A stretch of 63,549 bases of DNA, the filler included, from Reclinomonas americana ATCC 50394 (lineage: Eukaryota), in NCBI GenBank assembly GCA_048213135.1. It is 21 parts of 21 records of this genome, joined end to end, with 100 filler letters (N's around TTAATTAATTAA, not from the genome) between each part and the next. Parts side by side here need not be neighbours in the genome. Positions count along the whole stretch, not along the records: positions 28,185 to 32,521 come from AFZH01022740.1; 20 more parts are not named here. One strand, written 5' to 3'. This document shows, piece by piece, positions 28,010 to 60,270 of this stretch; within the stretch, counting starts at the first letter, position 1, and every line of letters starts with the position of its first letter. The notes beneath the pieces were generated by a model, which saw only the letters and a list, made by a program, of their open reading frames with translations, was not told the DNA's origin and made no database searches. A program made the translations under genes and the position numbers.

Positions 28010-29032
28010 GTTGCGTGTGTGTGTGCTGCGCGCGCGGGGAGAGAGTGACGCACACAATGGAGTCTCGCAAACTCCGAATGTCGTNNNNNNNNNNNNNNNN
28101 NNNNNNNNNNNNNNNNNNNNNNNNNNNNTTAATTAATTAANNNNNNNNNNNNNNNNNNNNNNNNNNNNNNNNNNNNNNNNNNNNGCCACGACCATGTTAC
28201 AACACCCACTCGCCAGCATCCTTTGCCACCACAGAAGCTCGATCTCACACTCTTTCCTGGTCGCTTGTTCATATCTCACTGGCGATCATTTACTGTCACC
28301 CGTAGTCTCCCTCGATCGCTCGCGTGCACCACAATGTCTTGCGTGTGCGCTCTGCATGCAAGTCTCTTTCGATCGCTGAGTTGAGAGAGTGAAAACTGTG
28401 GTGTAGAGCAGAGGGAGTCTTCATCGATTGACCATAATGTCTCGTGCACGTCTTTTCTCTAGTGTGCATTCAGCCTCGGTCGTTCGCACCTCACGATCGT
28501 GTTTCTCTCGCACGCACGGCAACCTTCACTCGCCAAATCGCAGCCTCTCACTCAGTTCCTCTCGAGAGTCTCTGCACCTGTGCACTCCCAATTTACCTTC
28601 CCTCGATCGCTTTTTCGCACTGTGCTTGAGTGTCAGAGAAAGAGTGACAGAAGGAGAATGAGGCGCGATGAAGAGAGAGAGAGAGAGAGAGATACTGATC
28701 ATGTCGCTGCAGCCCCACAGCTTCTTGCTTGATCGTTTCACTCTCTCCCTTCTTTTTCCCTCTCTCTCCTCTCGCTCCCCTCTTCTTGTGTGTGCACATA
28801 ATCACAGTCTCCATCAGCCGATCTGACTGCCAGTGCTACACTACGCCTGCAACAACTACCAGGCCGTGGCCGCTGGCACTCATCTCGGCAACGGCAACTC
28901 CTGCGGCAGCTACAGTGGTGCCACCTGCAGCCAGTCTCCGTTTGACAGCTGCACGCAGTAGACAAGAGATAGAGAGAGATTCTTGCCAAGTTGAAATCTG
29001 TAATTACATGTTTGCACTTGCAACCACAGTCA

Positions 29033-32000
29033 TCACGGGCTCACAGCTGCCGCAGCTGACGGTGGCGCCAGCACAATTGTGTGATAACCGTACTCGTCTC
29101 CCGAGTCGAAACGGGCGACCGTAGTGCGACAGAGAGGACATTTGCCACGCCGCTCGACCACTTGCTGCGCGCAGTTGCGGCACATCACCTCGTGTCCGCA
29201 TGGACGCAATCGAGTGTCGCGCACATCGTAACAGAGAACGCAGGCGCGACGGCACGACAACGCAGTGAGATCGCGCATCTCCGTCACCAGTTCGTCGGCA
29301 CTCGGGCGGCGATTGGGTCGATAGTCGACACAGCTGTTTGTCGAATCATGAGGGACGATCTACGCAGTGCAAATATGCACGGGGCTGATGCTTACTACTC
29401 ACCGCATGGCCAGCCGCACAAGACGGCGACAGACGGATGTGGGCCATTCCCGACCGACGGCGGTGTCGGCCAGCAGCACAGCGGACTCATCGAGTTTCGC
29501 CGCGTCGTCGTCCTCCACCATCGCCTCGATCCACTTGTGTACCTCGGCAATCGGCTGACCGGAGAACAGTTGCAGCAGAATGAGTCCGAGGCAGTACACG
29601 TCGGCAGTCGGGCGCAGAATGCCACGCAGTGCCTGTGGATCGGCATAGTTGTGGTCGCCAGCGAACTGCACCGACAGGTGTGTCTGCTTGTCGCCACACA
29701 CTAATGAGTACATTATCGGTGGGAAGGCGAGGGACGGGAGAGTGCACACTCACCCCGGCGGTGCGGAACCAGTGCGCGATTCCCAGGTCCGAGATGCATG
29801 CCTGGCCACGCTCGTCAAACAGGATGTTGGCGGGCTTCAGGTCGCGGTGAATGACTGCGAATCATGGTTAACAAGCGAGGTCAAATCACTCACAACCGAG
29901 TTCACGGAGACTCACCATTCTGGGTGAAGTCGAGAACAGAAAGCAGTGACAGTGAGAGGGAAGGGGAGTGAGAAACGACGTCAACAAGTTGCACGACAGC
30001 GACACAAACCATCCTGTACAACAAGAAACGATGTGAAACGACCACAAGCACCCGATTTCCCACTGCAGCTGCTGTTTCACCTGTGCAACGCAGCCACGAT
30101 CTCTGAGCATCGAAGCAGGCATGTCATCCGTTCCTCGATGGCCATGACGGACAATCCGAGTGCTTGATACTCCAACAACCGGTGCTCGAGATTGTGCTCG
30201 CTTGAGAATGATCAAAAGAAAACTGCACATCAGCAACAACGAAGCAGAAGAACTGCATGCAACCAGGAATACGCGATCTCCACCAACCTCATGGCCTCTA
30301 GCACAATGCACTTCTCTCCGCGATCAGATTCGGCGAAACCAATCATGCGTACCACACCAGGCACCGTCACATTCTTCAGTTTCTCCAACTGCATCCCAGC
30401 AAATTACGATAAACACAAGATGCGATGATCATCTGGTCTCCCCACACGCAGCGCTCACCTCATTGGAGAACGACTCGATGCACCACGGCGCATCGCTGTC
30501 GAACACCTTCACAGCCACCTGCAGCTCCATCCACGTGCCAGAAAACACGCTTCCCTGTCCACCCACGCCAAGACGACGAGCAAAGCCATTTGTCATGGCG
30601 CCGACTTGCTCCCAGGTAAAGGCCGTGAGCGGAACTGCAAGAATGCTGGTCATTAGCGGCTCACAAGCAATTATCGCAACACACTCACTCATACTCACCA
30701 CGATGGTTGAGCTCGTGCTGCGCGGTGGCCAAATCTGCGGCCAGTCGTTGTGCGCGGTCGTATTCTTGCTGGCGCTGCTCGTCCATGCGCTCCAGTGAGA
30801 CTCGAAGAGCCGCACACTCCTCACGCAGGCGCTGGATAGCGGCCTCTTCCTGCGGTTGTCCACGTGCCCTCTGCTCCTCCAGCTCCTGCTGCAGGCGTGC
30901 AACATTCGCCGCACTGCTGCGACTGGCCACTTGTGTTGCATCCAATTGAGCGGTCAACTGCCCGACTCGCTGTCGCTGCTCCTCCGCCTCGTGCCGCACT
31001 TGCGCGATGGTGGCCTCGTGTTGCTGCACCAGCAGCTGCGCTGCATTCATCTGCGTGGTCTGCTCGCGAACTGCGGCTTGCTGCGCCTCCAGCTCGTGCT
31101 GCAGTTGTGCGATGGTGGCTTCGTGTTGCTGCGCCTGGGCACTCAGCTCGCGGATAGCGGCTTGCTGATCGTTCTTGTCGCGTTGCAGTTGCGCAATGGT
31201 GGCATCGCGTCGCTGCACTTGCTGTTGTGCTGCACCCACTTGGGCAGTCCGCTCGCGAACCGCTGCCTGTTGCTCTTCCACCTCGCGCCGCAGTTGCCCG
31301 ATGGTTCCTTCGTGCTGCTGCGTCATCGCCCGCTGTTGCGCCAGGTCACGCTGCAGCTGGGCGATGGTGGCCTGCGATTGTGACTGCTTGGTGCAAAGTG
31401 TGGTCAACTCCTGCGTCTGCTGCTGCACGAGGCGCTGCTGCTCGGCCAGATCACGTTGCAGTTGTGCGTTTGCAGCCTCCAGCTGCTGTTCGCGTGCTGA
31501 GTTCCCTGTCTGCCAGGTTGGTGCACAGAGAGGTCAGTGTTGGGCAAGCTTCGGTACTTGTCAGGTTTCTCTCACCGGAGAACGCACTGGTGGCGGAGCC
31601 GATGCAGAAGCAGAGGAAGCTGCAGTCGCGGATGAACAACGAGTGTGGAGGACGAAATGAAAGAGTGTCGCTGACGTACCAGATGGGGAAGTCGTTGAAG
31701 AAGCCTTGCGGAGTGTCGCTATGGCTGCTCGGGTGCGGGTAATGCGGTCAATCGTGAGCTTGGAGCTTTTGTGGTCCGGTCCCAGCACGCGACGACGCAG
31801 CGGCAACACCTCCTCGAAGATCTCCAACGCCTCCTCCAGATTGACCAAACCGCCTGCGTTGTACAGCGCGAGTGCCAAGTTATGCATGCTCGTCAGCGTT
31901 GAAGTGTGATCCTCGCCCAACACTTCACGTCTCCGGCGCACAAGGTCGCGTGAAATCCGAATCGACTCCTCGTACTCCTTGTTGTCTTTAAGTGCCAGTG

Positions 32001-32469
32001 CCAAGCGATGCAACGAATACAACACATCCTTGACATCCTCCTTGGCCCCGAGGCGCTCTTGCTTCTCCGCCGTGTCGCGCAGCAACGTAATGGCCTCGCG
32101 ATGACGCCCTTGCTTCAACAGCGCATTGCCCATGCAGGAAGCCGTAATCAACGTCTCCTTGTGAGTCGCACCCAACACGTGCTTCCTCCTCTCCAACACA
32201 TCCTCGAACACCGGCAATGCGCTCTGTGCATCTCCCGAATCCAAGAGTGCATTCGCGTAGTTGTGTGCACACACAAGAGTCCATTCATCGTCGGGGCCGC
32301 GCAAGTCCTGTAAGTCGCTCATGCAGGTTCCGTAAAGGCGCGCGGCAGTGGCATAATCTCCGCCGTTATAATGCTGCATGGCCTCATCGTACTGCCGCTT
32401 GACTTCATCGAAAGTCCGCGCACCACCTCCGCTCCGACGCATGACGACTCGCCTGTCGGACAACAACAT
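29033..32469 (-). CDS. TPR / coiled-coil / RLK-Pelle(IRAK)-like Ser/Thr kinase / C3HC4 RING protein, 910 aa, 11 exons: 32469-31680, 31619-31576, 31509-30699, 30634-30459, 30388-30288, 30200-30081, 30013-30010, 29919-29916, 29854-29754, 29683-29403, 29333-29033
   Basis: All 10 introns are GT-AG and 60-90 nt; the spliced 2733 nt are in frame. TPRs of the LGxDHxxTLxxxxNLA type; Q-rich heptads; [75 protein letters not shown]-x9-PCGH-x3-CRNC-x9-CPLC. The first intron is in frame and stop-free, so it could be retained. Confidence 0.88.
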
Positions 32470-34196
32470 GAAGGACGATGCATTCTAGCGGACGGCGGCA
32501 GCTTCCTGTCGCTGGTGCCCCNNNNNNNNNNNNNNNNNNNNNNNNNNNNNNNNNNNNNNNNNNNNTTAATTAATTAANNNNNNNNNNNNNNNNNNNNNNN
32601 NNNNNNNNNNNNNNNNNNNNNGCTGCCGGGTTTGGAACCCGGCCGCCGGGTTTCAGCAGGTCAAGGTTGTCCAGGACCCGGTGCGCCCTTGTTACACACT
32701 GCATGCACTGCAATATCCACACTGTTTGCGCATATCACGCGAGGGATGTGGAAAAAGTGCTTGTGCAGTCCAATGCAAGATGATCGACGTCGAGGGCGAG
32801 TCTGCTCATGTACATGTTATGTCGTTGAGACAGCTCTCGGCGAGAGAATCCACCAAGTACGCAATGCATGGATATTATCGAAACAGTTGCCGTCGGTCTT
32901 TCCTGCCTCGCTGCGATGTGCCATCGCAACTAATGTACGGCTCTGCAGCCTCGCACGACGATGAAATCGGCATGCGAGAGACCATTCACCTCTTGCCCCT
33001 GCCCGGTGGTCACGAACACGTACAACACCAACTCGCCATCATCCTTTACCGCCACAGAAACTCCCCTTCGCTTTCCCAAAATACTCACACGAAAGGAAAA
33101 CCACTCACGAGCGCAGCGGCGATCCACTGCGCCGTCCACTCATGTGCACCGTCTCCCGCCGCAGTACCTCCAACAGCGTGTTCGCTGACTCGACAATCTG
33201 CGGCAAACGAAGCGGGTTGGACGCGTCGAAAGCGAACAGCTCGATTCACAGAGTCTTACTCTCACGATCGATCGCTCAGCAACAGCATCTCGCTCATACA
33301 AGACCGCACCTCTCTCTCTCTCTCTCTCTTTCTCTCTCCTTCCTCACTCCCTCCCTCCCTCTTGCATGATCGCTTGCATCTCTCAGGTGATCGATACTCG
33401 CGTAAACTCTCCCTCAATTGCTCACTCGTTGCCTTCCGCAATAAACCCGTGTCTTGGCGTCTGTGCTCTCTGCATATCTCCCTCGATCGCCAAGTCGAGA
33501 AAGAGAAAATTGAGCGAGGAGCGAGAAGGGAGAGTAAGAGGAGCAATCAACCGAGTCAGCGCGACAGAGAGAAAGGCGAAAGAGTGGAGCGATAGAGCTT
33601 GGAGAGACATCGCTCAACGCAGTCTCTTGCGCTCCCTCATTTTCTCTCTTCTTCTCCATACATTCTATACCCTGACTGCCTGTCTCGATAGTAGCTCGAA
33701 AGGTTGCTCTCGTGCGCACTGCAGTCTAGATCGCTTTCACACAGCCGCTCAATCGCAGCCTATCTCAAGCAAATTGTCTAGGCGTGGGCGCTCTTTGTAT
33801 GTCTCCCCAATCGAATGTTTGAGTGTTAGGGAGAATGACACAAGGGGAAAGAGCGATCAACCAAGCGAGACTGAACATCTCCACGGCGCTTCTCGCTTGA
33901 TCGCTCCTCTCTCTTTTTTCTCTTTCTCTCGTCTCATGTATGAACGCTGTCACATCTCTGTCTCTCAGCCCCAGCCTCTGCCTGATCGCTCCTCCTCTGC
34001 TTTTTATAACTCACTTCCTCCTCTGTCAAAGCCGCAATCGCCTGATCGTTCATCCTTCCCACTTCCTCTCTANNNNNNNNNNNNNNNNNNNNNNNNNNNN
34101 NNNNNNNNNNNNNNNNTTAATTAATTAANNNNNNNNNNNNNNNNNNNNNNNNNNNNNNNNNNNNNNNNNNNNTCTCTCTCTCTCTCTCTCCTCCTC

Positions 34197-38018: not shown

Positions 38019-38713
38019 ATGGATGTGCCTCCTGCTGCGTTGAAGCCGCTGCTTCCGTTTCTCAAGTGCAGTGAGGAGTTGGCGGAGAAGCACCCGCTCA
38101 TTGCTTATTATTGTTGAGTGTTTTGTGGAGGAGGAAGAGGAAGCAGAGAGAGAGAGAGAGAGAGAGAGCGAAGAGAGGAGAACTCTGTCTGTGTGTTACT
38201 GTGTGAGAGAGAGTGAGTGAGGATTCGATGTGTGCATTGTGATTACTGTGTTCTCCTGTGCATTGTTGTCTCGTTCTTCGCTCTCTCTCACTGCGAGATT
38301 GAGGACTCACAGTGAGCGAGACTCTGTTCTTCTTGTCCTTTCTCTCTCTCCCTGTCTCTTTCTCTTGTTCCTCCTCTGTCTTTTTCTCTCACTTTCTTTT
38401 CCCCTCCTCTCTCTCTCGCCACCCTTTCTCTGCTTCCCTCTCGTGGTTGACTGCTGTCCGCACACACGGAGCAAGCTCTGTTCTTCTCTTCTCTTTCTCT
38501 CTTTGTCTTCTCCCACTCTCTCTCCCTTTCCTCCGCTCTTTTCCTGCTTCTTGTGAGGGGCTTCTTCCTGAGCACACTGAGCAAGACTCTGTTCTTCTTG
38601 TCCTTCTCTCTCTCTTCCCGTCTCTCTCTCTCCGCTGTCCCTCTGTCAATCTCTGTTTCTCCCTGCATCCCTCCCGGTCTCTCTTTCTCTCCCTGTCTTT
38701 CTTGTTTCTTTAC

Positions 38714-38779
<66 letters not shown>

Positions 38780-40846
38780 GTCCGCCTCCTTTCCACCCTG
38801 TCTCTCGCGGTTGACTGCTGCCCGTACAAACTCTGTTCTCTCGTCGCTCTCCTCTTTTCTTCTTCCTCTGTGCTTCGTCGAGAGTGCAAGTGACTTCCAC
38901 TCTGCTCAGTGGCAAGATATCTTTCCTTCTCGTTCACTCTCACTTTCTGTGATGGGGAGAGTAAGGATTCGAAGGACTTCTCTCCCTCCCTCCCTCCCTG
39001 TTTCTTTCTTCCTCTCTTTGTCTCTTGTCTCCCTGTACTCCATCCATTCCCTGATCGTGCCGTGTGCACTTCTCCTGCTTCATCGCTTCTCTCTCTCATT
39101 CTCTCTCTCTCTCTCGCTTCTCCTATCGATTCTCCTCATCTCCTTCCTCCCCCCATTCGCTCTCCCTTCTCATCTCCCTTCTCATCTCCCTTCCCATCTC
39201 CCTTCTCATCTCCCTTCCCCACCCCTTTCCCCCTCCACAGGCGCCCAATACGCCGCCGAGCGCGGCCTCGTCATTCGCAACTCCAACCCCGGCGACGCCA
39301 CCATCCTTCCGTACCTGCTCGGCCTGCTTGATCGCCTGGAGGAGGCCAAGCGCGAGCTGAAGCCGAACCCGCAGCAGGGACGCGAGGAAATGGAGGTGTT
39401 TGCGCTCAAGCTGTTTGACGCCGCCGATCGAGTGTGGGAGACACCGCAGGCGTCCAAGGTGACGGTGAAGCAGTTTTACACGTCGGCCACGATTCTCGAG
39501 GCCACCGGGCAGTTTGGCGCGTTGAGCGAGGACATTGCGACGCGCATGAATGTTGAGCATCGTGGGATTGGGGAAGGGCTCAGTAAGGAGTGGGCGCTTC
39601 TCTTGTTTCTCCCTCCTCAGTTATAGTCCTTGACCTGTTGCACGGGTCTCTCTCTTTCTTCTCTCTCTTCACTTTTTCTCTCCTCTCACTCTTTCACTCA
39701 TTCGTTCTTTCTTGCTCTCTTTGTTCTTCTCTCTCTCGCTTTGTTTCATTTATTACTTTCTTTCTTTGCTTCTTTCTCTCTGCCTCTCGGCCTCTCTCTC
39801 TCTCTCGGTCTCTCTCTTTCTCTCTCTTTTCGTTACTTACTCCTCTCTTTCTGTATCTTTCTCGCTCGCATCGTTTCTTTCTTTCTTTCTTTCTGCTTGC
39901 GCACTGTACGAAGACGGAATTTTTCCTTTCTCCGTCACTGTCATTCTTCTTGTTGTTCCTGTCTACTCTCTTGGTTTGTAGTCGTCATCGTGGGTTGCCT
40001 CGCTCGCCTCGTCGGTCTTGTTGATCTTGTTATCCTATCGCTGGCCTTACTTGTTACTCGTCAGTGTTCTCTTCGGCTGTTCCCGCGCCTTGGTGCGCAC
40101 ACGCTGAGCTGACGTCTCCCCTCATTTGGTTCCATTCTTCCCCATCCCGTTGCCCCCCTCTTCCCCTTCTCGTTCCCCTTCTCGTTCCCCTTCTCCCTTC
40201 CCCCATCTCTTCCCCCATCTCTTCCCCCTCTTCCCCCACTCTTCCCCCTCTCTTCTCCCCACTCTTCCCCCTTCCTCTTCCCCCTTCCTCTTCCCCTTCC
40301 TCTCCCTTTCCTCACTCTTCTTCTTCCCTTCTCTTCCNNNNNNNNNNNNNNNNNNNNNNNNNNNNNNNNNNNNNNNNNNNNTTAATTAATTAANNNNNNN
40401 NNNNNNNNNNNNNNNNNNNNNNNNNNNNNNNNNNNNNGGGCTTTGTCCCGCGGCCGTCGGTGCCGCAGCAGCCACCCCCGTCGTTCCCGGCGTACGGACC
40501 ACCACCCGTGTATCCCCCACCTGCGCCCGCCGCGAGTGCGCCCACGTACTCGACGTATGCGGCCCCTGCACCGGCCGCCGCCACACAACCAGCTGCCGCC
40601 TCGAATGGCCCGCCCGTCGGCGGCGCCCCGAGTGGATTCCAGCCCTTCTCGGGACCACCGCCGGCGCACTTGTCGGCCAGCGGACGGTCGTCGCACGGCG
40701 CAGTGGCCGCATCCACAGCATCACTCGACACGGTGTGCGAGGCGCAGAAATTCGCCAAGTTCGCCGTCTCCGCGTTGCAGTTCAACGACATTAATACGGC
40801 CGTGATTAACCTGCAAAAAGCACTGGATCTGCTGACCAGACAGTGA
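38019..40846 (+). CDS. VTA1: Vta1/LIP5 (Vps4 cofactor, ESCRT pathway), spanning the gap at 40338-40437
   Basis: MDVPPAALKPLLPFLKCSEELAEKHPLIAYY|CAQYAAERGL...LLDRLE...FALKLFDAADR...FYTSATILE (MIT domains); Pro-rich linker; C-terminal EAQKFAKFAVSALQFNDINTAVINLQKALDLL (VSL). Confidence 0.93.
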
Positions 40847-46660: not shown

Positions 46661-46822
46661 CGAGAGAGAGAGAGAGAGAGAGAGGAGGAGAGAAGAAGAC
46701 GAAGGCTGACACGAAGGAACAGNNNNNNNNNNNNNNNNNNNNNNNNNNNNNNNNNNNNNNNNNNNNTTAATTAATTAANNNNNNNNNNNNNNNNNNNNNN
46801 NNNNNNNNNNNNNNNNNNNNNN

Positions 46823-47552
46823 GCGGCAGGCTGATGCGGCGCACGCCGAGTTCTTTCAGGCGCGGCAGCGGGATCAGCGGCGTGGTCGGGCGCGGGCGGA
46901 TGCCGAAGCCCATATTGATCGAAACCGGCTTGCCGCCGGCCGCCTCGACGACGCGGGCGATCTGGTCCTCGGTCTTGACGGCGTCGGGGAAGATCGCGTC
47001 GGCGCCGGCGGCGACATAGGCGCGGATGCGCTCCAGCGTCGCGTCGATCCCCTCGACGGCAAGGGCGTCGGTGCGGGCGATGATGACGAAATCGTCGTCG
47101 CGGCGGGCGAGGCAGGCGGCCTCGATCTTCTTGACCATCTCCTCCCTTGAGACGACTTCCTTGCCGGGCATGTGGCCGCAGCGCTTCGGGCTGACCTGGT
47201 CCTCCAGGTTGACGCCGGCGACGCCGGCCTCCTCGAACATCTGCACGGTGTAATGCACGTTCATCGGGTTGCCGTAGCCGTTGTCGGCGTCGCAGGTCAG
47301 CGGGATCGCGATCGAGCGGGCGAGCTGGCGGCAGTGATTAACGTTTTCGTTCAGCCCCATCATACCGAGATCCTCGACGCCGAGGATCGCATTGGCGATG
47401 GCGGCGCCGCTGGTGCAGGCGCTCTTGAAGCCGGCGGCTTCGACCAGGCGGGCGCTGTAGCCGTCATAGACGCCGGGCGAGACCAGGAACTCGCCGGAGT
47501 TGAGCAGGGCCCGGAAGGCGGCCGGAGCCGAAATCTCGCGTCTGGCGATCAT
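46823..47552 (-). CDS. Isocitrate lyase/PEP mutase family enzyme (methylisocitrate- or dimethylmalate-lyase-like); 3' truncated
   Basis: PGVYDGYSARL, TSGA, DADNGYG, EDQVSPKRCGH, IIARTDA. Confidence 0.92.
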
Positions 47553-47945
47553 GATGCTCGTTTCTCCGCATCGGTGGCGGCAGGGGATGGGGGTTCGGGA
47601 ACTTGGGCCAGCACATGGCGGCCTGCGCGCTCGACATGCGAGCGCATCAGGGATTCGGCGAGGGCGCCGTCGCGCATCTTGATGGCGCGCAGGATCTGCC
47701 AGTGCTCGGTGAAGGCGAGCTCCTTGCGCTCCGGCACGGCGCCGGAGATGCGCCGGTAGATCCGCAGCAGGTGGTAGAGATCGCCGCAGAGGCTGTCGAT
47801 GATGCGGTTGTTGCCGCTGGCGCGCACGACCCGCTCATGGAAGTCGAAGCGTGTCGTCTCGGGCGGCTGCTGGCCAGAATGCGCGGCTTCGAGATCGGCG
47901 ATCAGCGCGTCGATCTCGGCCTCGCCCATCCGCTGGGCGGCGAGG
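47549..47945 (-). CDS. GntR-family regulator, C-terminal FCD domain; 5' truncated
   Basis: FDFHERVVRASGN, EHWQILRAIKMRD...AESLMRSHV; its stop overlaps the lyase start (ATGA). Confidence 0.85.
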
Positions 47946-48045
47946 NNNNNNNNNNNNNNNNNNNNNNNNNNNNNNNNNNNNNNNNNNNNTTAATTAATTA
48001 ANNNNNNNNNNNNNNNNNNNNNNNNNNNNNNNNNNNNNNNNNNNN

Positions 48046-48428
48046 AGGCAAATGCGCTTCGCGCCGATCGCCTTCAGCGCATGGCGGATCGCGCCGCTCG
48101 CGGTCTCGACGGGAAAGCCCGCCGCCTCAGAGAGGCATGCGGCCAGAGCATCGTCGGCGCCAGCGCCGAGCCGGTAGCTCGGTCCGGTCAGCGCGACCGT
48201 CGCGGCATCGAGCTTCAGGCTGCCGAAGGTTTTCAGGGCCGGCTGGTAAGAGGCGATGTAAGCGCGATTGCGCTGCTCCAGCGTCGTATCCGGCATCACC
48301 GGCAGGCGCGTGGCGTAGAGCCGGGCGCCGGCGGAGATCAGCCGGTTCATCTCCGGCTCGACAGTCGGGTTGGCCGGCGGGACGAGCACGCCCAGAGCGG
48401 GCTGCGTAGCGAGTTCGGCGAGATCCAT
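48046..48428 (-). CDS. Asp/Glu racemase superfamily protein (maleate isomerase / arylmalonate decarboxylase-like); 3' truncated
   Basis: LGVLVPPANPTVEPEM...ATRLP...PVETASGAIRHALKAIGAKRI. Confidence 0.82.
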
Positions 48429-48436
48429 GATGTCCC

Positions 48437-49517
48437 TCAGGCGGCACGGGCAGGGCGCTCGAGCATGTCGAGCATTGCGGCGGCGGCGAGATAGTCGATG
48501 GCGCTGCTGCGCGAGGCGGCGAGATCGCGCACCTTCTGCAGCCAGTCCTCGCCGCCGGCGACGTTGCGGTCGGTGCGCGGGATCAGCATCTCTTCGGCGA
48601 CGCGCTTGCGCTCGGCTGCAGCTGCGACGACGAGCTCCGGCCGGTGCTCACGCAAGGCGCGGATCATCGCCTCGGCGAGCGCCTTCGCATCGTGGATGCC
48701 GCAATTCATGTTCATGCCGCCGCGGGTGTTGGTGACATGGGCGCCGTCGCCAGCGAGGAAGGCGCGGCCGACATGGTAGTGCGAGGCGACACGGCGGCTG
48801 GCGCCGTAGACGTCGCGCCCCAGCACCGTCGGCGGCGTGGTCCAGCTCGGCATGACCTCGCGGATGCGGTCGGCGAACCAGCCGTCCTGGAGCGCTGTCT
48901 CGTCCGGCACGTCGCCCGGCACGCGGATGATGATGCGCCAGCAATCCGGCATCTTGAGGAAGCTCAGGGATTTGCCGCCGTTGTGCAGATAAGTGATCGG
49001 CGCGATCCCCGGCAGCACCAGATCGAGATCGTCCGAGGTCATCACGCGCAGGACCTTGTGCGGATAGACCATGCCGTCGAAGGCGATGCCGAGCGCCTCG
49101 CGCACGGCGCTGCGGGCGCCGTCGGTGCCGAGCAAATAGTCGGCCGCGATAGTCAGCTTCTGCCCGTCGCGGTCTGCGGTGACGGTGACGCCATTCTCGT
49201 CCTGCGCAACCGCCTCGAAGCCGGTGCCGAACAGCATGCGGGCATTGGGAAGCGCCTCGATCTGCGCCAGCAGCAGCGGCGTCAGGCGCGCCTGCTCCAG
49301 ATGCAGCCGGAAGGGCCAGGGGGTGCGCTCGGCGGGGTCGGCGAGGATGAACTCGGCGAAGGGGCCGTCCGGCGTGCGGTACTGGATGCGCTTGACGATC
49401 TCGCCCTCGGCCAGCATCGGCTGGAGTACGTCGAGCTCGTCGAGGATCTCCAGCGTCGCCGGATGGAAGGTCGAGGCCTTGGAGGCGGCGGTGAGCGCGG
49501 CGCGCTTTTCGAGCACG
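48437..49517 (-). CDS. FAD-dependent monooxygenase (group A aromatic hydroxylase family); 5' truncated
   Basis: SKASTFHPATLEILD, DG motif GTDGARSAVR, GD motif GRAFLAGDGAH...GGMNMNCGIHDA. Confidence 0.92.
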
Positions 49518-49617
49518 NNNNNNNNNNNNNNNNNNNNNNNNNNNNNNNNNNNNNNNNNNNNTTAATTAATTAANNNNNNNNNNNNNNNNNNNNNNNNNNN
49601 NNNNNNNNNNNNNNNNN

Positions 49618-49861
49618 CGCCGATGCCGCGCCGATGGGCCGGGACGTTGTTCAGCGGCCTTCCGTCGAAGGTGATGGTGCCGCCGGACGGATCCTCGAAG
49701 CCGGCCAGCATCATCAGCGTCGTGGTCTTGCCCGAGCCGGATGGGCCGAGCAGCGTGACGAACTCGCCGCGCTCGACGGCGAAGTCGAGCGACTTCACGA
49801 CCTGCGTCGCGCCGTCATAGCTCTTGGTGACCTTGTCGAAGACGATGATGGGATCGCTCAT
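49618..49861 (-). CDS. ABC transporter ATPase (PotA-like); 3' truncated
   Basis: Walker A GPSGSGKTT, LAGFEDP, VPAHRRGIG. Confidence 0.92.
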
Positions 49862-49868
49862 GATGCAC

Positions 49869-50714
49869 TCATGCAGTCGGGCCGGATGGGGAGGCCCCGC
49901 GGGCCTGCGCGCGCTTCCGGATGAATTCGTTGAGGGCCAGCAGCAGCACCGAGAAGAGGATCAGCAGCACGGCGGCGGCGGCGATGGTCGGGCTCAGGAA
50001 TTCGCGCAGGCCGGCATACATCTGGCGCGGCAGCGTGAACTGGCCGGGACTGGCGATGAACAGCGCTACGATCAATTCGTCGAAGGAGGTGGCGAAGGCG
50101 AAGAGCGCCCCCGTCGCCACGCCCGGTGCGATCAGCGGCAGCACGACGCGGCGGAAGGCGATGGCCGGGTTGGCGCCCAGGCTCGCGGCGGCGCGCAGCA
50201 GGTTCTGGTCGAAGGTCTGCAGCGAGGCCAGCACCGTCAGCAGCACGAAGGGCACCGAGAGCACTGTGTGGGCGAGGATCAGGCCGGTCAGCGTCGAGCC
50301 GAGGCCGACGAGCGACAGCGAGAAATACATGGCGATCGCGGTGACGATGACCGGCGTCACCATCGGCAGCGACAGGATGGCGAGGAGCAGCGCCTTGCCG
50401 GGGAAACGGCCGAGGAAGATGCCGAAGGCGGCGAGCGTGCCGAGCAGCGTCGCCAGGATCATGGTGGCGATGCCGACGACGAAGCTGTTCCAGGTGGCGC
50501 TGAGCCAGCGGCTGGAGGTGAAGAAGTCCTCGTACCAGCGCAGCGAATAGCCCGGCGTCGGCAGCACCAGCAATTCGCCCGAGGAGAGCGAGAGCGGGAA
50601 GACGACGACGATCGGCGCCACCAGGAAGAGCAGGATCAGGGCCGTGACCAAAGCGAGCGCGAGGCGTCCGGCCGAGAGCTTGCGCGCCGGGGAGGATGGA
50701 GCGGTGCCTGCCAT
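49869..50714 (-). CDS. ABC permease (PotC-like)
   Basis: Hydrophobic segments, SLRWY, EAA-like RAAASLGA loop, SFDE. Confidence 0.93.
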   Translation of the reverse strand: MAGTAPSSPARKLSAGRLALALVTALILLFLVAPIVVVFPLSLSSGELLVLPTPGYSLRWYEDFFTSSRWLSATWNSFVVGIATMILATLLGTLAAFGIFLGRFPGKALLLAILSLPMVTPVIVTAIAMYFSLSLVGLGSTLTGLILAHTVLSVPFVLLTVLASLQTFDQNLLRAAASLGANPAIAFRRVVLPLIAPGVATGALFAFATSFDELIVALFIASPGQFTLPRQMYAGLREFLSPTIAAAAVLLILFSVLLLALNEFIRKRAQARGASPSGPTA

Positions 50715-50717
50715 CGC

Positions 50718-51896
50718 TCAGACCTTCACGTTGCCGGAGCGGAAGCCGGGCACGATCAGCCGCGCGACGATGACGAGCAGCGCGGTCATCGCCATCAGCA
50801 GGGTCGCCAGCGCGGCGGCCATGCCCCAGTTCACCGAGGTGTTGGTGAAGAAGGCGATGAAGTAGCTGACCATCTGGTCGCCGGAGCCGCCGACGAGGGC
50901 GGGCGTGATGTAGAAGCCGACCGAGAGCATGAACACCATCAGCGATCCCGCGGCGACGCCTGGCATGGTCAGCGGCAGGTAGATGCGCAGGAAGCGGCGC
51001 CAGCCCGGCGCGCCGAGCGAGGCGGCGGCACGCATATAGTCCGGCTTGATCCCCTTCATCACGCCATAGAGCGGCAGGATGGCGAAGGGCAGTAGCACGT
51101 GGACCATGGCGAGATAGACGGCAAAGCGGGTGAAGATCATCGTCAGCGGCTGGTTGACGATGTCGAAGGCGAGCAGTAGCGCGTTGATCGGCCCCTCGCG
51201 CTGCAGGATGATGAACCAGGCGGTCGTCCGCACCAGGATCGAGGTCCAGAACGGGATCAGCACCAGCATCATCCCGGCATTGGCCCAGCCCTGCGGCAGG
51301 ATCGAGAGCGTGTAGGCGACGGGATAGGCCAGCAGCGCGCAGATTACCGTGACGATCAGGCTGATCTCGAAGGTGCGCCAGAACAGCGGCAGGAAGACCG
51401 CATCCTCGGCGCCGGCATGGACGATGCCCTTGTCGGTCGGGCGCATATCGAGCGAGCGCAGAAGGTAGAGCGAGGTCCAGGGACCGGTCGCGCGCTTGAA
51501 CATGCGCCAGAGCTCAGGCTCGCCCCAGCGCGGATTGAGCGCGATCAGGCCATCTTTCACTGGCGGAGCCAGCCGAGCAGAAGCCCGGGCGGCCTGCAGC
51601 AACAGGCTGCGCAGGCCGGTCTCCTCGAAGTTGAGGCGGCTGAGGACAGCCCCGGCCTCCTGGTTCTGCTGCGCGTTGCGCAATTCCTCGACGATGGCGG
51701 CAAAGGCCTCGTCGGGCGGCAGGTCCTTGCCGTCCCAGGCGCGCAGCAAGGCAGTGGTGCGGGGCAGGGTGGTCGAGAACTCGGAATCGTCGACCGCCCG
51801 ATAGAGCGTCGCCCCGAGCGGGACGAGGAAGCTCAGCGTGACCAGGAGCAGGAGGGGCGCGATCAGCGCCGCCGCCAGCAGGTTCCGTCGTGACAT
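50718..51896 (-). CDS. ABC permease (PotB-like)
   Basis: LIPFWTSILVRT, RAAASLGA, FYITPALVGG. Confidence 0.93.
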   Translation of the reverse strand: MSRRNLLAAALIAPLLLLVTLSFLVPLGATLYRAVDDSEFSTTLPRTTALLRAWDGKDLPPDEAFAAIVEELRNAQQNQEAGAVLSRLNFEETGLRSLLLQAARASARLAPPVKDGLIALNPRWGEPELWRMFKRATGPWTSLYLLRSLDMRPTDKGIVHAGAEDAVFLPLFWRTFEISLIVTVICALLAYPVAYTLSILPQGWANAGMMLVLIPFWTSILVRTTAWFIILQREGPINALLLAFDIVNQPLTMIFTRFAVYLAMVHVLLPFAILPLYGVMKGIKPDYMRAAASLGAPGWRRFLRIYLPLTMPGVAAGSLMVFMLSVGFYITPALVGGSGDQMVSYFIAFFTNTSVNWGMAAALATLLMAMTALLVIVARLIVPGFRSGNVKV

Positions 51897-51923
51897 GCCG
51901 AGCCCTCGTGCCGGATCGAGGTT

Positions 51924-52961
51924 TTACTTTGCCAGCCAGGCGTTGAAGCGGGCCTCGAGATCCTCACCGTGCTCGACCCAGAACTCGGTGTTGATGAAGA
52001 GCCCTTCCTTGGCGTGGTTGGCGACCATGCCCGGGTTCTTCTTGATGATCTCGGGATTGTTGGCGACGGCGGCGTTGGCCGGCGACACCGCCCAGTCCTG
52101 CGCGAGATTGGTCAGCGGCTTCTCGTCGGTCATGTAGCTGATCAGCTTCATGCCCTCGGCCTTGTTCGGCGCGTTGCGCACCACCGTCCAGTAATCGAAC
52201 GAGAACAGCAGCGTGTTCCACTGCACCGGGTACTTGGCGCCGCCTTCATTGGCGCGGATCGTGCGTCCGACATAGCCGACCGCATAGGCGGCCTCGCCCG
52301 AGCCGACGAGCTGCAGCGGCTGCGTTCCCGACTTCCACCAGACGACATGCGGCTTGATCTGGTCGAGCTTGGCGAAGGCGCGCTTCTGCCCGTCCGGTGT
52401 CGCCAGCACCTTGTAGACCTCGGCGGCCGGCACGCCGTCGGCGAGCAGGGCGATCTCGAGCGTCATCTTGGCGCCGGACCGCAGCGAGCGCTTCCCGGGG
52501 AACTTCTGGAAGTCCCAGAGTTCGGCATAGTTCGCCGGGCCGGTTGCGGTGCGGGCCTGGTCGTAGAACAGGCTGACGCCCCAGCCGACGGCGCCGGCGC
52601 CGCAGGCGGTGGTGCCGCCCGGAATGAACTTCTTCTGGTCGATGACGCTCCAGTCGAGCTTCTCGAAGACGCCGTCCTCGCAGCCGCGGGCGAGCTCGGG
52701 CGCCTCGACCATGATCACGTCGTAGGTGACGTCGTTCGACTTCACCATCGAATAGATCTTGGCCATCTCGCCATTGTAGACGTCGTCGGCGACCTTCACG
52801 CCCTTTTCGGTGGCATAGCCCTGGAACAGGTGCTTGCGGGCATTGTCCTGGAAGCCGCCGCCGAAGCCGACGACCATCAGGTCGCGCGCCGAAGCGGGAG
52901 CCGCGGCCGCGGCCAGTCCAAGCGCGAACAGCCCCGCGCAGGCAAGTCTCGTCGTCTTCAT
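51924..52961 (-). CDS. ABC substrate-binding protein (polyamine/PotD-like)
   Basis: Signal peptide MKTTRLACAGLFALGLAAAAAPASA; WDFQKFPGKRSLR, LEIALLADGV; GAGGGG ribosome-binding site 6 nt upstream of the ATG at 52961. Confidence 0.9.
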   Translation of the reverse strand: MKTTRLACAGLFALGLAAAAAPASARDLMVVGFGGGFQDNARKHLFQGYATEKGVKVADDVYNGEMAKIYSMVKSNDVTYDVIMVEAPELARGCEDGVFEKLDWSVIDQKKFIPGGTTACGAGAVGWGVSLFYDQARTATGPANYAELWDFQKFPGKRSLRSGAKMTLEIALLADGVPAAEVYKVLATPDGQKRAFAKLDQIKPHVVWWKSGTQPLQLVGSGEAAYAVGYVGRTIRANEGGAKYPVQWNTLLFSFDYWTVVRNAPNKAEGMKLISYMTDEKPLTNLAQDWAVSPANAAVANNPEIIKKNPGMVANHAKEGLFINTEFWVEHGEDLEARFNAWLAK

Positions 52962-53137
52962 GCTCATCCCCTCGTTCTTATGGATATCAAGCCCGGGTTT
53001 CGACGGCCATCGACGGCAGCCCGGCTGCCACGTCAAGCCGCCTGCCACCCGCGTGACAAGCGTATTGGTATTTTTGATATGATGATGATACATATCTGTC
53101 AACGGCTACCCGACGCCGTGCTCTCCAGGGACCTCCG

Positions 53138-53316
53138 ATGACCGCAGCCACGCTTTCGCTCGATCCGATCTCGCCCGCGATCCGCCCGACCCAGCAGGAT
53201 CCGGACCAGCGCTATCGCTATCAGCACTATATCGACGGCGCCTTCGTCGATCCGGCGAGCAATGCCTGGCTGGAGACGTCCGGATCCGGTGACGGGCGAG
53301 GGACTGGGGCCTGGGT
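53138..53316 (+). CDS. Aldehyde dehydrogenase N-terminus, truncated, with indels near the contig end
   Basis: YQHYIDGAFVDPASNAWLET followed, in a shifted frame, by DPVTGE; typical ALDH start. Confidence 0.65.
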
Positions 53317-53416
53317 NNNNNNNNNNNNNNNNNNNNNNNNNNNNNNNNNNNNNNNNNNNNTTAATTAATTAANNNNNNNNNNNNNNNNNNNNNNNNNNNN
53401 NNNNNNNNNNNNNNNN

Positions 53417-54061
53417 CTCGATCGAGCGCAAGATCTCGACCAGCTCGGTATCCTCGCTGCGCGCCTCGATACCCAGCGCGCCCTGCCCGACGGCATAGGG
53501 GAACGCGACGGGGTCGAGGAATTCGGACGACTTGCGCCCGAGGCCGAGCCGCTCCAGCCCGGCATGGGCGAGGATGACGGCGTCGAGCGCATCGTCACCT
53601 TCGATCTTGGCGAGCCGCGGGCCGATATTGCCGCGGATGGGAACAACGGTGACGTCGGGGCGCAGGCTCAGGATCTGTGCGCGCCGGCGCAGCGAGCCGG
53701 TTCCCACCCTCGCGCCTTCCGGCAAATCTTCGAGCGCCGAGCCGCACAGCACATCGCGTGGATCCTCGCGCTTGGGCACGGAGGCCAGGACGAGGCCGTC
53801 GCGAAGAATGGTCGGCAGGTCCTTGAGCGAATGGACGACGAAATCGACGTCCTTGCGGAGCAGCTGCTCCTCATGCTCGGTCGTGAAGACGCCGATCATG
53901 CCGAACTGATGGAACTCGGAGACCCTGTCGCGATCGGCGACGGTCGAAATCGGGCAAATCTCGAATTCGATATGCGGATGCAATGCCTGAATTGAACCAA
54001 TTACAAAGTTGGTTTGCGTCATGGCAAGGGGGCTGCGGCGGGTGCCAACGCGAAGAAGCAT
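53417..54061 (-). CDS. hemC: Hydroxymethylbilane synthase (porphobilinogen deaminase), divergent; 3' truncated
   Basis: RVGTRRSPLAMTQ, VHSLKDLP, REDPRD, VGTGSLRR, IRGNI, AVGQGALGIE. Confidence 0.9.
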
Positions 54062-54314
54062 AATTCGTGAACCTGTTTGCGCCGTGCACGCGCGATCGCG
54101 CACCGTCTAGCAGTTGCGATCCCGGAGTGAAAGTGCGGCAGATTCGCCGGCTCGGCAGTGCCCGCGCGCGGCTTTTGCGCTGCCAGACGTGGCCAAATGC
54201 GGCGAGGACGCGTCCCGCCCATCGTGACGGCCATCGCCTCTCGACGCGAACGGGCGGAGCGTGCAAATTGACCGCCAGGAGCGGCTGGGCTCCTTCCTTC
54301 GTCTGGTTCGCCGC

Positions 54315-55310
54315 ATGCATCGCCGCTCCCTTCTGGTTGCCCTGGCAGTGTGCGGCCTCGCGATGTCGGGCCGGGCGGCGCGCTCGGCGGAACCGGCCAA
54401 GCGGATTTCGATGCTGATCGGGTTGCCGCTCGACCATCCCATCGTGAGCGCGCGCGTGGCCGAACTCTATCGGCTGCTAGCCGAGCGGGGCTGGGTCGAG
54501 GGCAAGAATTTGCGGGTCAGCTGGAGAGTCTGGGGAGCGAGCGAGGTGGACCTTGCCCGCGGCGCCGCCGAGGTCGTCGCCGAGAACCCGGACATCATCG
54601 TCGTCGGTTCCAGTGCCGAGACTGCGGCCGTGCTGGCGAAGACCCGGCGGATACCGGTGCTGTTCGGGACGGCCTCGGATCCGGTCGGGAGCGGCTTCGT
54701 GCGCTCGCTCGAACGTCCGGATGGAAACGCCACGGGCTTCAGCAACAACGACCCCGCAATGTCGGAGAAATGGGTCGAGCTGCTGGCCGAGATCGCGCCG
54801 GCGACGCGGCGCATCGGGGTGGTCTTCAATCCCCATACGACGCCTGCGGCCGGAGCGACCTATCTTGCGCGCCTGCGGGCGGCGGCGACTGGCGACGAGC
54901 CGGCCTTCGAGACGATCCAGGTGACCGAACCTGCCGCGATCGACCGGGAGATCGCCGGATTCGCCGGCAAGGGAGCGGGCGGCGGCCTGGTCTTCCTGCC
55001 GGACAGCTTCACCTACCGCAATGCCGCGCTCTGCACCGCCGCTGCCGCGCGTCTGGCCTTGCCCGCTGTCTACCCGTTCGACACCTTCACCTTGCAGGGC
55101 GGCTTGATGTCCTATGCCGGGGCGCGCGAGGAGACGGCCGAGATGCTCGCCTCCTATATCGACCTCATCCTGCGCGGGGCCGATGTCGCCGAATTGCCGG
55201 TGCAGTTCTCGCGCAGCTTCGAGCTGGTCATCAACGAAAAGGCCGCCGCGGCCCTGGGGCTGAGCCTGCCGGCCTCGCTGCGGATCCGTGCGCAACGGAT
55301 CCTGTCGTGA
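54315..55310 (+). CDS. Stand-alone ABC-type substrate-binding protein (ABC_sub_bind family) with twin-Arg-like signal
   Basis: MHRRSLL..., GWVEGKNL, DPVGSGFVRSLERPDGNATG, GGLMSY, LPVQFSRSFELVINEKAA. Confidence 0.9.
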   Translation: MHRRSLLVALAVCGLAMSGRAARSAEPAKRISMLIGLPLDHPIVSARVAELYRLLAERGWVEGKNLRVSWRVWGASEVDLARGAAEVVAENPDIIVVGSSAETAAVLAKTRRIPVLFGTASDPVGSGFVRSLERPDGNATGFSNNDPAMSEKWVELLAEIAPATRRIGVVFNPHTTPAAGATYLARLRAAATGDEPAFETIQVTEPAAIDREIAGFAGKGAGGGLVFLPDSFTYRNAALCTAAAARLALPAVYPFDTFTLQGGLMSYAGAREETAEMLASYIDLILRGADVAELPVQFSRSFELVINEKAAAALGLSLPASLRIRAQRILS

Positions 55311-57228
55311 CGCAAGACGCCCTGGCGGGACAAGACGGCTCCCGGCGCCGGCGCGGCGAGCTCACCCGCAAATATGCGCTCTTCGTCGGCCTTGCAATCT
55401 GCCTCGCGCTCGGGCTCAACGCGGCGATCGCGACCTTCTTCGCCTTCTCGGACCAGAGGGCGCTCCTGGTTCGGGTCCAGCAGGAACAGGCNNNNNNNNN
55501 NNNNNNNNNNNNNNNNNNNNNNNNNNNNNNNNNNNTTAATTAATTAANNNNNNNNNNNNNNNNNNNNNNNNNNNNNNNNNNNNNNNNNNNNGGCCTCGCA
55601 AAGCGGCGCCAGCAGCAGTTCGCCGGAGGAGCGCCGGCTCGACGGTCTGCGGCTGATGCGGCAGGTCCCCGCCGTGCTCGAATTGCGCCAGATCGATCCC
55701 GGCGGGCGCGAGCAGCTCCTGTTGTCGCGCTATGCGCGGGACCGGGCGGATGGCGGCACCGACTGGTCGACCGATCCCGGCTTCCAGGCCGCCCTGGCGC
55801 AGGGCAGCTTCCACAGCGAGGTCGAGTTCCGGCGCGGATCGGAGCCGCATATGGTGCTGCTTCGGCGGGCGGCGTCGCCTCCTCACTGGGTCGCGCGAGC
55901 CACCGTCAATCTCGTCTTCATCCGCGAGCTGGTCTCGCGCCTCAAGGTTGGCGAGGCCGGCCGCGCCTATATCGTCACGCGCTCCGGGCGCCTGATCGCC
56001 CATCCAGACCTGCGCTTCGTGCTGCGCAACACCAACCTCGCCGCGCTCGTGAACGCGCATGAGGCTGCAGGAGCGGCCAAGGCCGGGCTTTCGATGACCG
56101 ATATCGAGGGCCGGCGCGTCCTTTCGGTGATGACTGCGGTCCCGGATCTCGACTGGAACGTGGTGATCGACCTGCCCGAGAGCGAGGCCTTCGCGCCGAT
56201 CCATGCCTCGATTCTGCGTTCGCTGACGGTGCTGCTCCTGGCCCTGCTGGTGGCTGTGCTGGCCGGCATCATGCTGAGCCGCAAGCTGGTCGCGCCGATC
56301 AAGGCTCTCGGCGAGGGGGCGGCGCGGATCGGCCGCGGCGAGCTCGACGCGCGGATCGCGATCCACACCGGCGACGAGCTCCAGGAACTGGGCGAGCAGT
56401 TCAATGTGATGGCCGAACGCCTGGCGGAAGGCCGGGCGGTCCTGGAGGACAAGGTCGCCGAGCGCACCGCGGCGCTGGAGCAGGCGCTGACGCTCGCCTC
56501 TGCTGGGCAGAAGGCGGCGGAGGAGGCGACGCGGGCCAAGTCCCGGTTCCTGGCGGTGGTGGGGCACGATATCCGCACACCGCTCGCCGGCGTGCTCGGC
56601 GTGCTCGAACTGATCGATCGCCGCCGCATGAGCCAGCGCGACCGTCGCCTCGTTGCCATGGCCGTGACCTCGGGCGAAGCGCTGGTCGACCTCGCCAATG
56701 CGACGCTCGACCTGTCGCGGCTGGAGGCCGGGACCGAAAGCCTCGACCGGCGCGATTTCGACCTCTGTGCCCTCCTCGGTGCGGCGGTGGCGCTGATGCG
56801 GCCGCTGGCGGAACAGAAGGGGCTTGCCCTGACGCTGCGCCCTCCGCCAGAGGAGCTGCGCCTGCACGGCGATGCCGGCAAGATCCACCGCATCCTGGTC
56901 AACCTGCTGCGCAATGCGATCAGCTTCACTGAGGCGGGTGAGGTGGTGCTGGCGGCAGAGCTGCAGCGCGCCTCGGCGGGGAAGGGCCTGGATCTGACAT
57001 TGACCGTTAGCGACACCGGCATCGGCATCGATCCGGCCATGCAACGGCAGATCTTCCGGGATTTCGTGCAGGTCGATCCTGAAACGGGGCGGCGCAATGG
57101 CGGCGTCGGGCTTGGCCTTGCGATCTGCACCAAGCTGGCGGAGCTGATGGGCGGTTCGATCTCCGTCGCCAGCGCCAAGGGGCAGGGCAGCACCTTCTCG
57201 GTCAGGCTGCCGGTGACGGCGGCCAGGG
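55307..57228 (+). CDS. Membrane sensor histidine kinase (TM-Cache-TM-HAMP-HisKA-HATPase), interrupted by the gap at 55492-55591; 3' truncated
   Basis: GTG start overlaps the SBP stop; AYIVTRSGRLIAHPD (Cache), TGDELQELGEQFNVMA (HAMP), GHDIRTPL (H-box), NLLRNAISF, DTGIG, GVGLGL. Confidence 0.9.
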
Positions 57229-57328
57229 NNNNNNNNNNNNNNNNNNNNNNNNNNNNNNNNNNNNNNNNNNNNTTAATTAATTAANNNNNNNNNNNNNNNN
57301 NNNNNNNNNNNNNNNNNNNNNNNNNNNN

Positions 57329-60259: not shown

Positions 60260-60270
60260 GCGAGCCCGCC

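Follow-up and report, generated by a model that had tools for sequence, protein, structure and literature searches.

The stretch of DNA analysed here, referred to as the window, comprises 63,549 nucleotides of Reclinomonas americana ATCC 50394 (GenBank assembly GCA_048213135.1). Inside a single contig of the window (AFZH01022740.1; positions 28185-32521, 4337 bp, 57% GC) lies a minus-strand gene whose whole coding span, 29033..32469, runs from an ATG at 32469 to a TGA at 29035-29033. An initial annotation had proposed that this gene fuses tetratricopeptide repeats (TPRs), a long coiled coil, a protein kinase of the receptor-like kinase (RLK)/Pelle type and a RING E3 ubiquitin ligase. We followed up this proposal by rebuilding the gene model and examining its modules by profile, structure-prediction and phylogenetic methods. 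On balance, the locus appears to be one protein-coding gene of an intron-rich eukaryote that places a kinase and a ubiquitin ligase in one soluble signalling enzyme of ~910-916 residues.

Rebuilding the annotated model from its coordinates gave 11 exons, a coding sequence of 2733 nt and a protein of 910 residues with one terminal stop (910-916 residues in other good models). Exons 1-6 occupy 32469-31680, 31619-31576, 31509-30699, 30634-30459, 30388-30288 and 30200-30081, and exons 7-11 occupy 30013-30010, 29919-29916, 29854-29754, 29683-29403 and 29333-29033, all on the minus strand. The 10 introns between them are all GT..AG and 60-90 nt long, and retention of eight of the ten would introduce a frameshift or a stop. 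The proposed 910-residue frame was thus reproduced exactly, but several intron sets serve equally well and that of 10 introns is one of them, as described below. The GC content of third codon positions (GC3) is 0.69 against 0.44 at second positions (GC2), and that of the introns is 0.45-0.56. All four modules were found on the minus strand where the annotation had placed them, as judged from the spliced frame and from Pfam, which was run on single exons; on its own, only one of the five kinase exons was long enough to give a match. None of the five plus-strand open reading frames (ORFs) across the gene gave a Pfam match. No membrane segment was detected, the highest 19-residue Kyte-Doolittle mean being 1.45 and located in the kinase, and no paralogue of the model was found by tblastn on any of the other 20 contigs of the window.

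The protein kinase and its N-terminal regulatory helix (29265..30634, minus strand), identified by profile match and motifs, are assembled from exons 30634-30459, 30388-30288 and 30200-30081, a small piece within 30080-29855, exons 29854-29754 and 29683-29403, and the start of 29333-29033. The exon bearing the HRD motif matches Pfam Pkinase (8.6e-8). We compared the spliced kinase with an independent profile that leaves out the query and draws on 27 kinases, of which 12 are from environmental kinase-RING proteins and 15 from plant RLKs. The match is in one piece, covering positions 8-310 of 315 with 178 bits and an E value of 2.4e-56; that seven exons give a colinear kinase is far beyond chance. 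The glycine loop, the VAVK lysine, the αC glutamate, the HRD aspartate, the catalytic asparagine and the DLG aspartate are all kept, as are the aspartate of subdomain IX and the arginine of subdomain XI. This agrees with the catalytic motifs, DLG included, that the initial annotation had listed, and an active RD kinase is expected from the spliced sequence.

Features within and before the catalytic domain bear on the family to which this kinase may belong. The 14 residues preceding the glycine loop conform to the consensus F..E......T..F, and the pre-kinase helix aligns with the 'sleelekaTnnFd' columns of the profile and with residues 4-61 of SYMRK. In its treatment of this region, a survey of 510,233 plant sequences (PMC10916322) describes an amphipathic helix plus an ST motif (TxxF) with the 14-residue consensus FSYEELEKAT[D/N]NF[S/D]; the helix and its TxxF cap are reported there as common to RLKs, receptor-like cytoplasmic kinases (RLCKs) and human IRAK1/3/4, and the cap is proposed to mark the RLK/Pelle superfamily and said to be absent elsewhere. 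The earlier reading of the pre-kinase motif as an RLK/Pelle/IRAK signature is in keeping with that account. The C-lobe exon has IRAK4 as its best match in the PDB (1.4e-6), followed by PBL2, RIPK, BIK1, Pto and LysM-RLKs, and the first 38 of its PDB matches belong without exception to IRAK4 or plant RLK/RLCK. We also built a tree with IQ-TREE from 45 rows, the 44 comparison rows having been hand-picked from 144 proteins with near-complete domains. With support of 93/96, the kinase joins 18 plant RLKs and 13 environmental kinase-RING proteins in a clade that excludes five oomycete, giant-virus or unnamed kinases and eight bacterial kinases; its position inside this clade has support of only 41/0. 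We consider it an RLK/Pelle-like, very divergent kinase that is likely to belong to the superfamily.

The C-terminal RING finger (29111..29248, minus strand) is of the C3HC4 type (zf-C3HC4_3) and begins ~10 residues past the end of the kinase. Residues 29-74 of the last exon match Pfam zf-C3HC4_3 at 2.1e-10 (40.7 bits against a cutoff of 27), with a weak match to RING_XB3-XBAT31 (5.3e-4, below cutoff). At E<=0.01, the Pfam matches include several RING models, zf-C3HC4_3 and zf-RING_2 among them, and none is to a U-box. All eight zinc ligands in the pattern C-x2-C...C-x-H-x2-C-x2-C...C-x2-C are kept, as in members of the RING-HC class, and they align with those of the environmental protein P0131 and with the invariant columns of alignment A1 of environmental kinase-RING proteins. 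The likeness extends across the kinase-RING junction: in BLASTP, the last exon is 40% identical to P0131 over 82 residues, with every cysteine and histidine aligned.

This arrangement recurs elsewhere. An exhaustive HMMER search with the last exon, which holds the kinase end and the RING, returned 882 proteins at E<=1e-3. The relatives examined were the 150 best of these 882 and eight cluster members (n=158), and 26 of the 158 carry a RING immediately after the kinase. Their sources are metagenome or metatranscriptome contigs, and MMETSP in one case. Pfam on 20 relatives revealed ankyrin-kinase-RING (P0217, 908 residues; P0175; P0240), WD40-kinase-RING (P0226) and kinase-RING-Arm (P0159) proteins, as well as plain kinase-RING proteins such as P0131, P0143 and P0202. 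A profile of 12 kinase-RING relatives matches BRI1, FERONIA, Pto, IRAK4, BIK1 and BAK1 at ~1e-80, and the A1 consensus carries textbook RLK motifs; the kinase studied here matches P0273 at E 3e-28. A short heptad stretch precedes the kinase in some members. In P0131/P0273, P0143, P0202, P0211 and others, as here, no more than ~10 residues separate an RLK/Pelle-like kinase from a zf-C3HC4_3 RING after it, whereas their kinases are typically RLK-like (HRDIKSSN type) and that of this gene is much more divergent. The N terminus of P0131 contains a hydrophobic stretch (hydropathy mean 1.73) that could anchor it in a membrane.

Profile A1, run on proteins of at least 1590 residues only, retrieved mostly plant multi-kinase gene models and one kinase plus RING protein, P0381, while the ESM Atlas gave no usable match for the last exon and placed P0217 only in generic Ank-kinase clusters. 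The open-access literature searched held no paper describing the environmental kinase-RING family and nothing relevant on kinase-RING fusions in protists. Judged from their sequences, proteins that combine a kinase-RING core with exchangeable repeat modules form a genuine family that recurs and apparently has no name, and the gene described here is a predicted divergent, TPR-bearing member of it.

The repeat module of this gene is encoded by exon 1. The TPR domain (31693..32412, minus strand; residues 20-259 of the exon) was delimited by Pfam, AlphaFold2 (AF2) and Foldseek. Exon 1 matches TPR_10 at 1.5e-33 (114 bits, cutoff 27.5) and TPR_12 at 2.7e-30 (105 bits, cutoff 30.1), and a single-sequence AF2 model (pLDDT confidence score of 91; predicted template modelling score 0.80) has 11 helices over residues 20-259, equivalent to ~5.5 repeats. 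The 42-residue repeats above cutoff and the predicted solenoid are those of the kinesin light chain (KLC) type of TPR (TPR_10/TPR_12). Foldseek places a Podospora 'putative kinesin light chain' repeat protein (4y6c) first, at E 8.8e-9, followed by the cargo-binding TPR domains of KLC1/KLC2. In fold and repeat type, the domain resembles the TPR domains of KLC and those that form the arms of fungal NLR-like proteins (PDB 4y6c, 7ai4, 5oj8 and 6f9i; E 8.8e-9 to 1e-6, template modelling score up to 0.83 on the target, sequence identity 20-23%). However, the kinesin-binding heptad region of KLC and the NB-ARC/NACHT domain of the fungal proteins are not in this protein. The best sequence relatives of the exon, at ~30% identity, are fungal NB-ARC plus TPR and bacterial Ser/Thr kinase plus TPR proteins, and a word-indexed protein search of longer lengths yielded only generic TPR proteins at ~30% identity, the product of this gene itself not being among them. 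The assignment of these repeats to the type found in kinesin light chains and attached to fungal NLRs, made in the initial annotation, is upheld by both structure and sequence matches. The KLC-type TPR fold binds short peptides in its groove.

Between the TPRs and the kinase, a single exon (30699..31509, minus strand) encodes 270 residues that are 22% Gln and 17% Ala, with internal repeats of 21, 28 and 35 residues. Leu, Ile, Val, Met and Phe recur with a 3.5-residue periodicity that was reached by none of 2000 shuffles, and hydrophobic residues occupy two heptad positions throughout. AF2 models one helix over residues 3-194 and further helices over 200-217 and 220-269 (pLDDT 86.6). The segment is hence predicted to begin as a heptad coiled-coil stalk, ~190 residues long, and to end in two further helices. 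A tandem repeat in the DNA of this exon (31062-31216; 84 nt x 1.8, 76% match) corresponds to the 28-residue protein repeat, and the coil therefore seems to have grown by internal duplication.

Judged by predicted domain order, the closest described kind of protein is the plant PUB-VI/RLCK-IXb group (Arabidopsis PUB32-35, 50-53 and 61), of which PUB33 is an example. A PUB33 preprint (10.64898/2026.02.10.704836) gives, in its description of the protein, the order UspA, long α-helical domain, RLCK kinase and U-box, and reports that PUB33 has both kinase and E3 activity, inversely controlled by autophosphorylation at Thr333. It also describes PUB33 homomers and heteromers with PUB32, apparently formed via the helix, and several pathogen effectors that target PUB-VI/RLCK-IXb proteins. 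As far as that preprint sets out the group, its soluble members have an N-terminal module, a long helix or coil, an RLK/Pelle-type kinase and a C-terminal E3 in the same order as the protein described here. The helix-kinase-E3 order that the initial annotation attributed to plant U-box kinases is the one given there. The PUB-VI trait of a long, coiled-coil-forming helix directly before the kinase is seen in this gene as the ~270-residue coil, to judge from AF2 and the heptad periodicity.

The two terminal modules differ. This gene has a zinc-binding C3HC4 RING where PUB-VI proteins have a U-box, and KLC-type TPRs where they have UspA; Pfam found no Usp match in exon 1. The comparison proteins contained no RLCK-IXb sequences, and the likeness to PUB-VI is one of architecture. 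Since two defining features, the U-box and UspA, are absent, we do not file the gene as a PUB-VI member, and homology to PUB-VI/RLCK-IXb beyond the kinase is not supported. The gene is, by its predicted architecture, a protist counterpart of the plant kinase/U-box proteins and not a wholly new kind of protein.

Other described proteins share parts of this design. Arabidopsis KEG (KEEP ON GOING) has the order RING-kinase-ankyrin-HERC2-like according to the description in preprint 10.64898/2026.02.10.704836, and PMC10286513 describes a plant RING-kinase-WD40 protein. Both, as described, combine a RING E3, a kinase and a repeat module in one chain, as here, but their RING is N-terminal to the kinase with the repeats after it, whereas the RING of this gene is C-terminal. 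Pfam on the exons found no ankyrin or HERC2-like repeats in this gene.

Related kinases are also coupled to E3 ligases as separate proteins. Animal IRAK kinases act with the RING E3s TRAF6 and Pellino, and rice XA21 acts with the Ank-RING E3 XB3. In IRAK-TRAF6/Pellino and XA21-XB3, a kinase of this group is coupled to a RING ligase plus coiled coil; the components are separate proteins there and would lie in one chain here, in the manner of a 'Rosetta-stone' fusion. IRAKs carry a death domain, which is absent from this protein. The exact four-part order was found neither among the 150 best database matches of the last exon nor in the open-access literature searched. The earlier remark that the architecture is not recognized from a described family holds for that exact order within these searches, but the kinase-RING core is recurrent and the overall logic is that of PUB-VI/RLCK-IXb.

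The exact splicing immediately before the HRD motif (29855..30080, minus strand) is ambiguous, as revealed by path enumeration and profile scoring. All GT-AG paths between exons 30200-30081 and 29854-29754 that contain from one to three introns, each 40-250 nt long, were enumerated. Of these paths from 30081 to 29854, 4851 are in frame and free of stops, and for at least six the kinase profile gives 176-185 bits. The annotated path uses two 4-nt exons (GATG, 30013-30010; AATG, 29919-29916) and introns of 67, 90 and 61 nt, and scores 178.0 bits. An alternative, with one 23-nt exon (29919-29897) flanked by introns of 161 and 42 nt, reaches 185.3 bits and gives back the ten-residue spacing from LH to HRD that is usual in RLKs; the annotated path is better on the intron-length class of the gene and on its strong GTGAGT donor. 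The 42-nt intron of the 23-nt-exon path begins GTTGTG, and a GTGAGT lies inside it, 3 nt further on. One 8-nt exon is a further option in 30080-29855. The predicted kinase is intact under every candidate path other than a 98-nt-exon form, and the protein is then 910-916 residues long. The 98-nt exon, which retains the 90 nt of the middle intron as coding sequence and adds 30 residues before HRD, splits the kinase match into two pieces of 65.8 and 100.7 bits, as against 178 in one piece, and is the least likely form. We found no relevant report of consecutive microexons in protists in the literature.

Two other parts of the model are flexible. Intron 1 (31679-31620, minus strand; 60 nt) lies in a Ser/Ala-rich linker and, because it is in frame and stop-free, its removal is not required and it may be optional. 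At the 5' end, an in-frame TAG (32485-32487) preceded by a run rich in pyrimidines may serve as a splice acceptor. An out-of-frame ATG at 32483-32485, 14 nt upstream of the proposed start, opens an overlapping frame of 54 codons. With this overlapping ATG and the possible acceptor, the 5' end is uncertain. In the AF2 model, residues 1-19 are disordered and the first TPR helix begins at residue 20, which fits a true N terminus but is no proof of one.

The order of modules suggests, by analogy with PUB33, how such a protein could work. The coil would pair two chains, and the TPR groove would recruit a partner or substrate by holding one of its peptides. In the pair, the kinases could then phosphorylate each other, the linker or the partner, and trans- or autophosphorylation within the dimer might tip the protein towards kinase or towards E3 activity. 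The bound partner, or the protein itself, would then be ubiquitinated by the RING in an E2-dependent manner. We infer this scheme of dimerization, partner capture, phosphorylation and ubiquitination from PUB33.

Several observations weigh against reading the locus as one intact four-part enzyme. The contig edge lies only 52 nt upstream of the ATG at 32469. In the kinase, the APE motif reads ADPQ and DFG reads DLG. TPRs like those of this gene occur in none of the 158 kinase/RING relatives examined. The best HMMER score with the last exon is only 72 bits, with no close ortholog, and the word-indexed protein search of longer lengths found no relative of the C-lobe exon. Scans of metagenome contigs found no relative of the RING exon and only two matches, at 22-25% identity, for the TPR exon. 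Moreover, the TPR-coil fusion hangs on intron 2 alone (31575-31510, minus strand; 66 nt), which follows a Ser/Ala/Pro-rich linker exon of 44 nt (31576..31619, minus strand) situated between introns 1 and 2. Were this junction an artefact of introns read into intergenic DNA, there would be two genes, one for a small TPR protein with its stop codon (TGA) at 31561-31563 and another, downstream, for a coiled-coil-kinase-RING protein, and the environmental proteins P0131, P0143 and P0202, kinase-RING proteins that have no repeat module, accord with such a division. However, the minus strand holds no ATG between 31680 and 31510, the 171 nt that separate the end of exon 1 from the coil exon, in which no in-frame Met occurs before codon 62, and the 61 open codons ahead of that Met already show the coil repeat unit; the fusion is favoured for these reasons. 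The kinase N-lobe exon likewise has no usable start codon of its own. Intron 2 itself has GTGAGA..CAG ends and the length class of the other introns of the gene (60-90 nt). Two genes are hence improbable, and a single gene is very likely. The annotated combination of TPRs, coiled coil, kinase and RING in one gene is borne out by the spliced frame, the domain matches and the absence of an alternative start. Still less probable, in our estimate, is a decaying or non-catalytic copy of an expanded family, either a pseudokinase scaffold or a pseudogene. The long branch of the kinase, its unusual DLG and ADPQ motifs, the ambiguous splicing before HRD and the short unplaced contig are all compatible with decay. 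Against this, the frame is open for ~2.7 kb over all exons, the catalytic residues and all eight RING ligands are kept, and the difference between GC3 and GC2 is as for coding sequence.

The single-gene reading leaves the ancestry and role of the kinase to be weighed. The kinase could instead lie outside RLK/Pelle/IRAK, as a divergent tyrosine-kinase-like (TKL-like) or lineage-specific Ser/Thr kinase whose likeness to RLKs is ancestral or convergent. Its catalytic loop, HRDLKPAN, had been taken as a mark of RLK/Pelle, a claim that did not survive: the loop is not of the HRD[IL]K[SAT]xN kind that is typical, though not defining, for RLK/Pelle, the A1 consensus being HRDIKSSN, and HRDLKPxN is the general form of Ser/Thr kinases. 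Indeed, the best PDB matches of the catalytic-loop exon are MKK7 and GRK2, followed by SOBIR1, Chk1 and ALK2. The best match of the N-lobe exon, SYMRK, is weak (0.014) and has B-Raf, TGF-beta receptor and PTK6 close behind, and two of the five kinase exons, searched singly, had no PDB match at E<=10. In the tree, the branch of the kinase is 2.42 changes per site long and its identity to any row is at most 29%. The earlier expectation that the kinase groups with plant RLKs has support of only 93/96, on a very long branch and in a tree drawn without animal IRAK/Pelle, Raf, receptor tyrosine kinase (RTK), RSK, MLK, LRRK or other TKL rows. Set against these points are the F..E......T..F cap, a marker described as absent outside RLK/Pelle in the survey cited above (PMC10916322), the uniformly IRAK4 and RLK/RLCK matches of the C lobe, and a clade with plant RLKs that leaves out the oomycete, giant-virus and bacterial kinases. 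We regard a kinase from outside the superfamily as rather unlikely. As to the role of an RLK/Pelle-like kinase of this design, the initial annotation had raised non-self sensing in the cytosol; on such a reading the TPRs would bind a microbial or viral ligand, as in fungal and bacterial NLR/STAND proteins, the coil would oligomerize, and the kinase and RING would provide an alarm output. The TPR type is found attached to fungal NB-ARC proteins, the kinase type is used in plant and animal innate immunity, and pathogen effectors target PUB-VI/RLCK-IXb proteins, as stated in preprint 10.64898/2026.02.10.704836. Pfam found no NB-ARC/NACHT NTPase or death-fold domain on any exon, although an upstream exon could lie beyond the contig end; there are only ~5.5 TPRs, and TPRs of the KLC type serve for the most part as ordinary adaptors for cargo or partners. 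Nothing beyond analogy speaks for the proposal, which is distinctly unlikely, and an immune-sensor role is speculation.

A kinase and a ubiquitin ligase in one chain are a rare combination that is only now being characterized, PUB33 being the subject of a 2026 preprint. The present gene extends a PUB-type design outside the described plant group, with a RING in place of the U-box and TPRs in place of UspA, and database matches point to a kinase-RING core with interchangeable repeat modules as common among environmental eukaryotes. Taken alone, the gene is a domain-shuffling variant known from sequence. If confirmed, it would offer a simple one-protein system for the coupling of phosphorylation and ubiquitination and a data point on the reach of RLK/Pelle/IRAK among protists. 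A far bolder proposal, to which we give little credence, is that these genes represent an undescribed, widespread family of modular cytosolic receptors in microbial eukaryotes, in which a variable repeat sensor (TPR, ankyrin or WD40), a coiled coil, an IRAK/RLK-like kinase and a RING E3 would link ligand-driven dimer phosphorylation to ubiquitination. If true, such proteins would be one-protein equivalents of the animal IRAK-TRAF6/Pellino and plant RLK/RLCK-PUB modules, and kinase-E3 coupling in innate immunity would predate or parallel the plant and animal systems.

The remainder of the window (1-63549) is of mixed composition. Its 21 short contigs (1.1-5.5 kb) are joined by 20 identical spacers of N44-TTAATTAATTAA-N44 (3395-3494, 7010-7109 and so on to 62389-62488), and their order therefore has no genomic meaning. 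The last seven contigs (46823-63549) have 66-70% GC, against 53-57% in the first fourteen, and carry long uninterrupted ORFs of bacterial type. Features in this part include a Cache-HAMP-HisKA-HATPase sensor kinase (55548-57284, plus strand), an OppC-like permease (60231-62096, plus strand) and a PEP mutase (46767-47834, minus strand). These contigs are probably bacterial sequence mixed into the assembly. Elsewhere, the low-GC contigs hold ordinary eukaryotic genes, none like the gene under study: an uninterrupted WD40 propeller ORF of 458 residues (5555-6931, minus strand), an AMP-binding C-terminal domain (18058-19116, minus strand), a kinesin motor exon (24780-25754, minus strand) and a Vta1-like ORF (38451-39626, plus strand).

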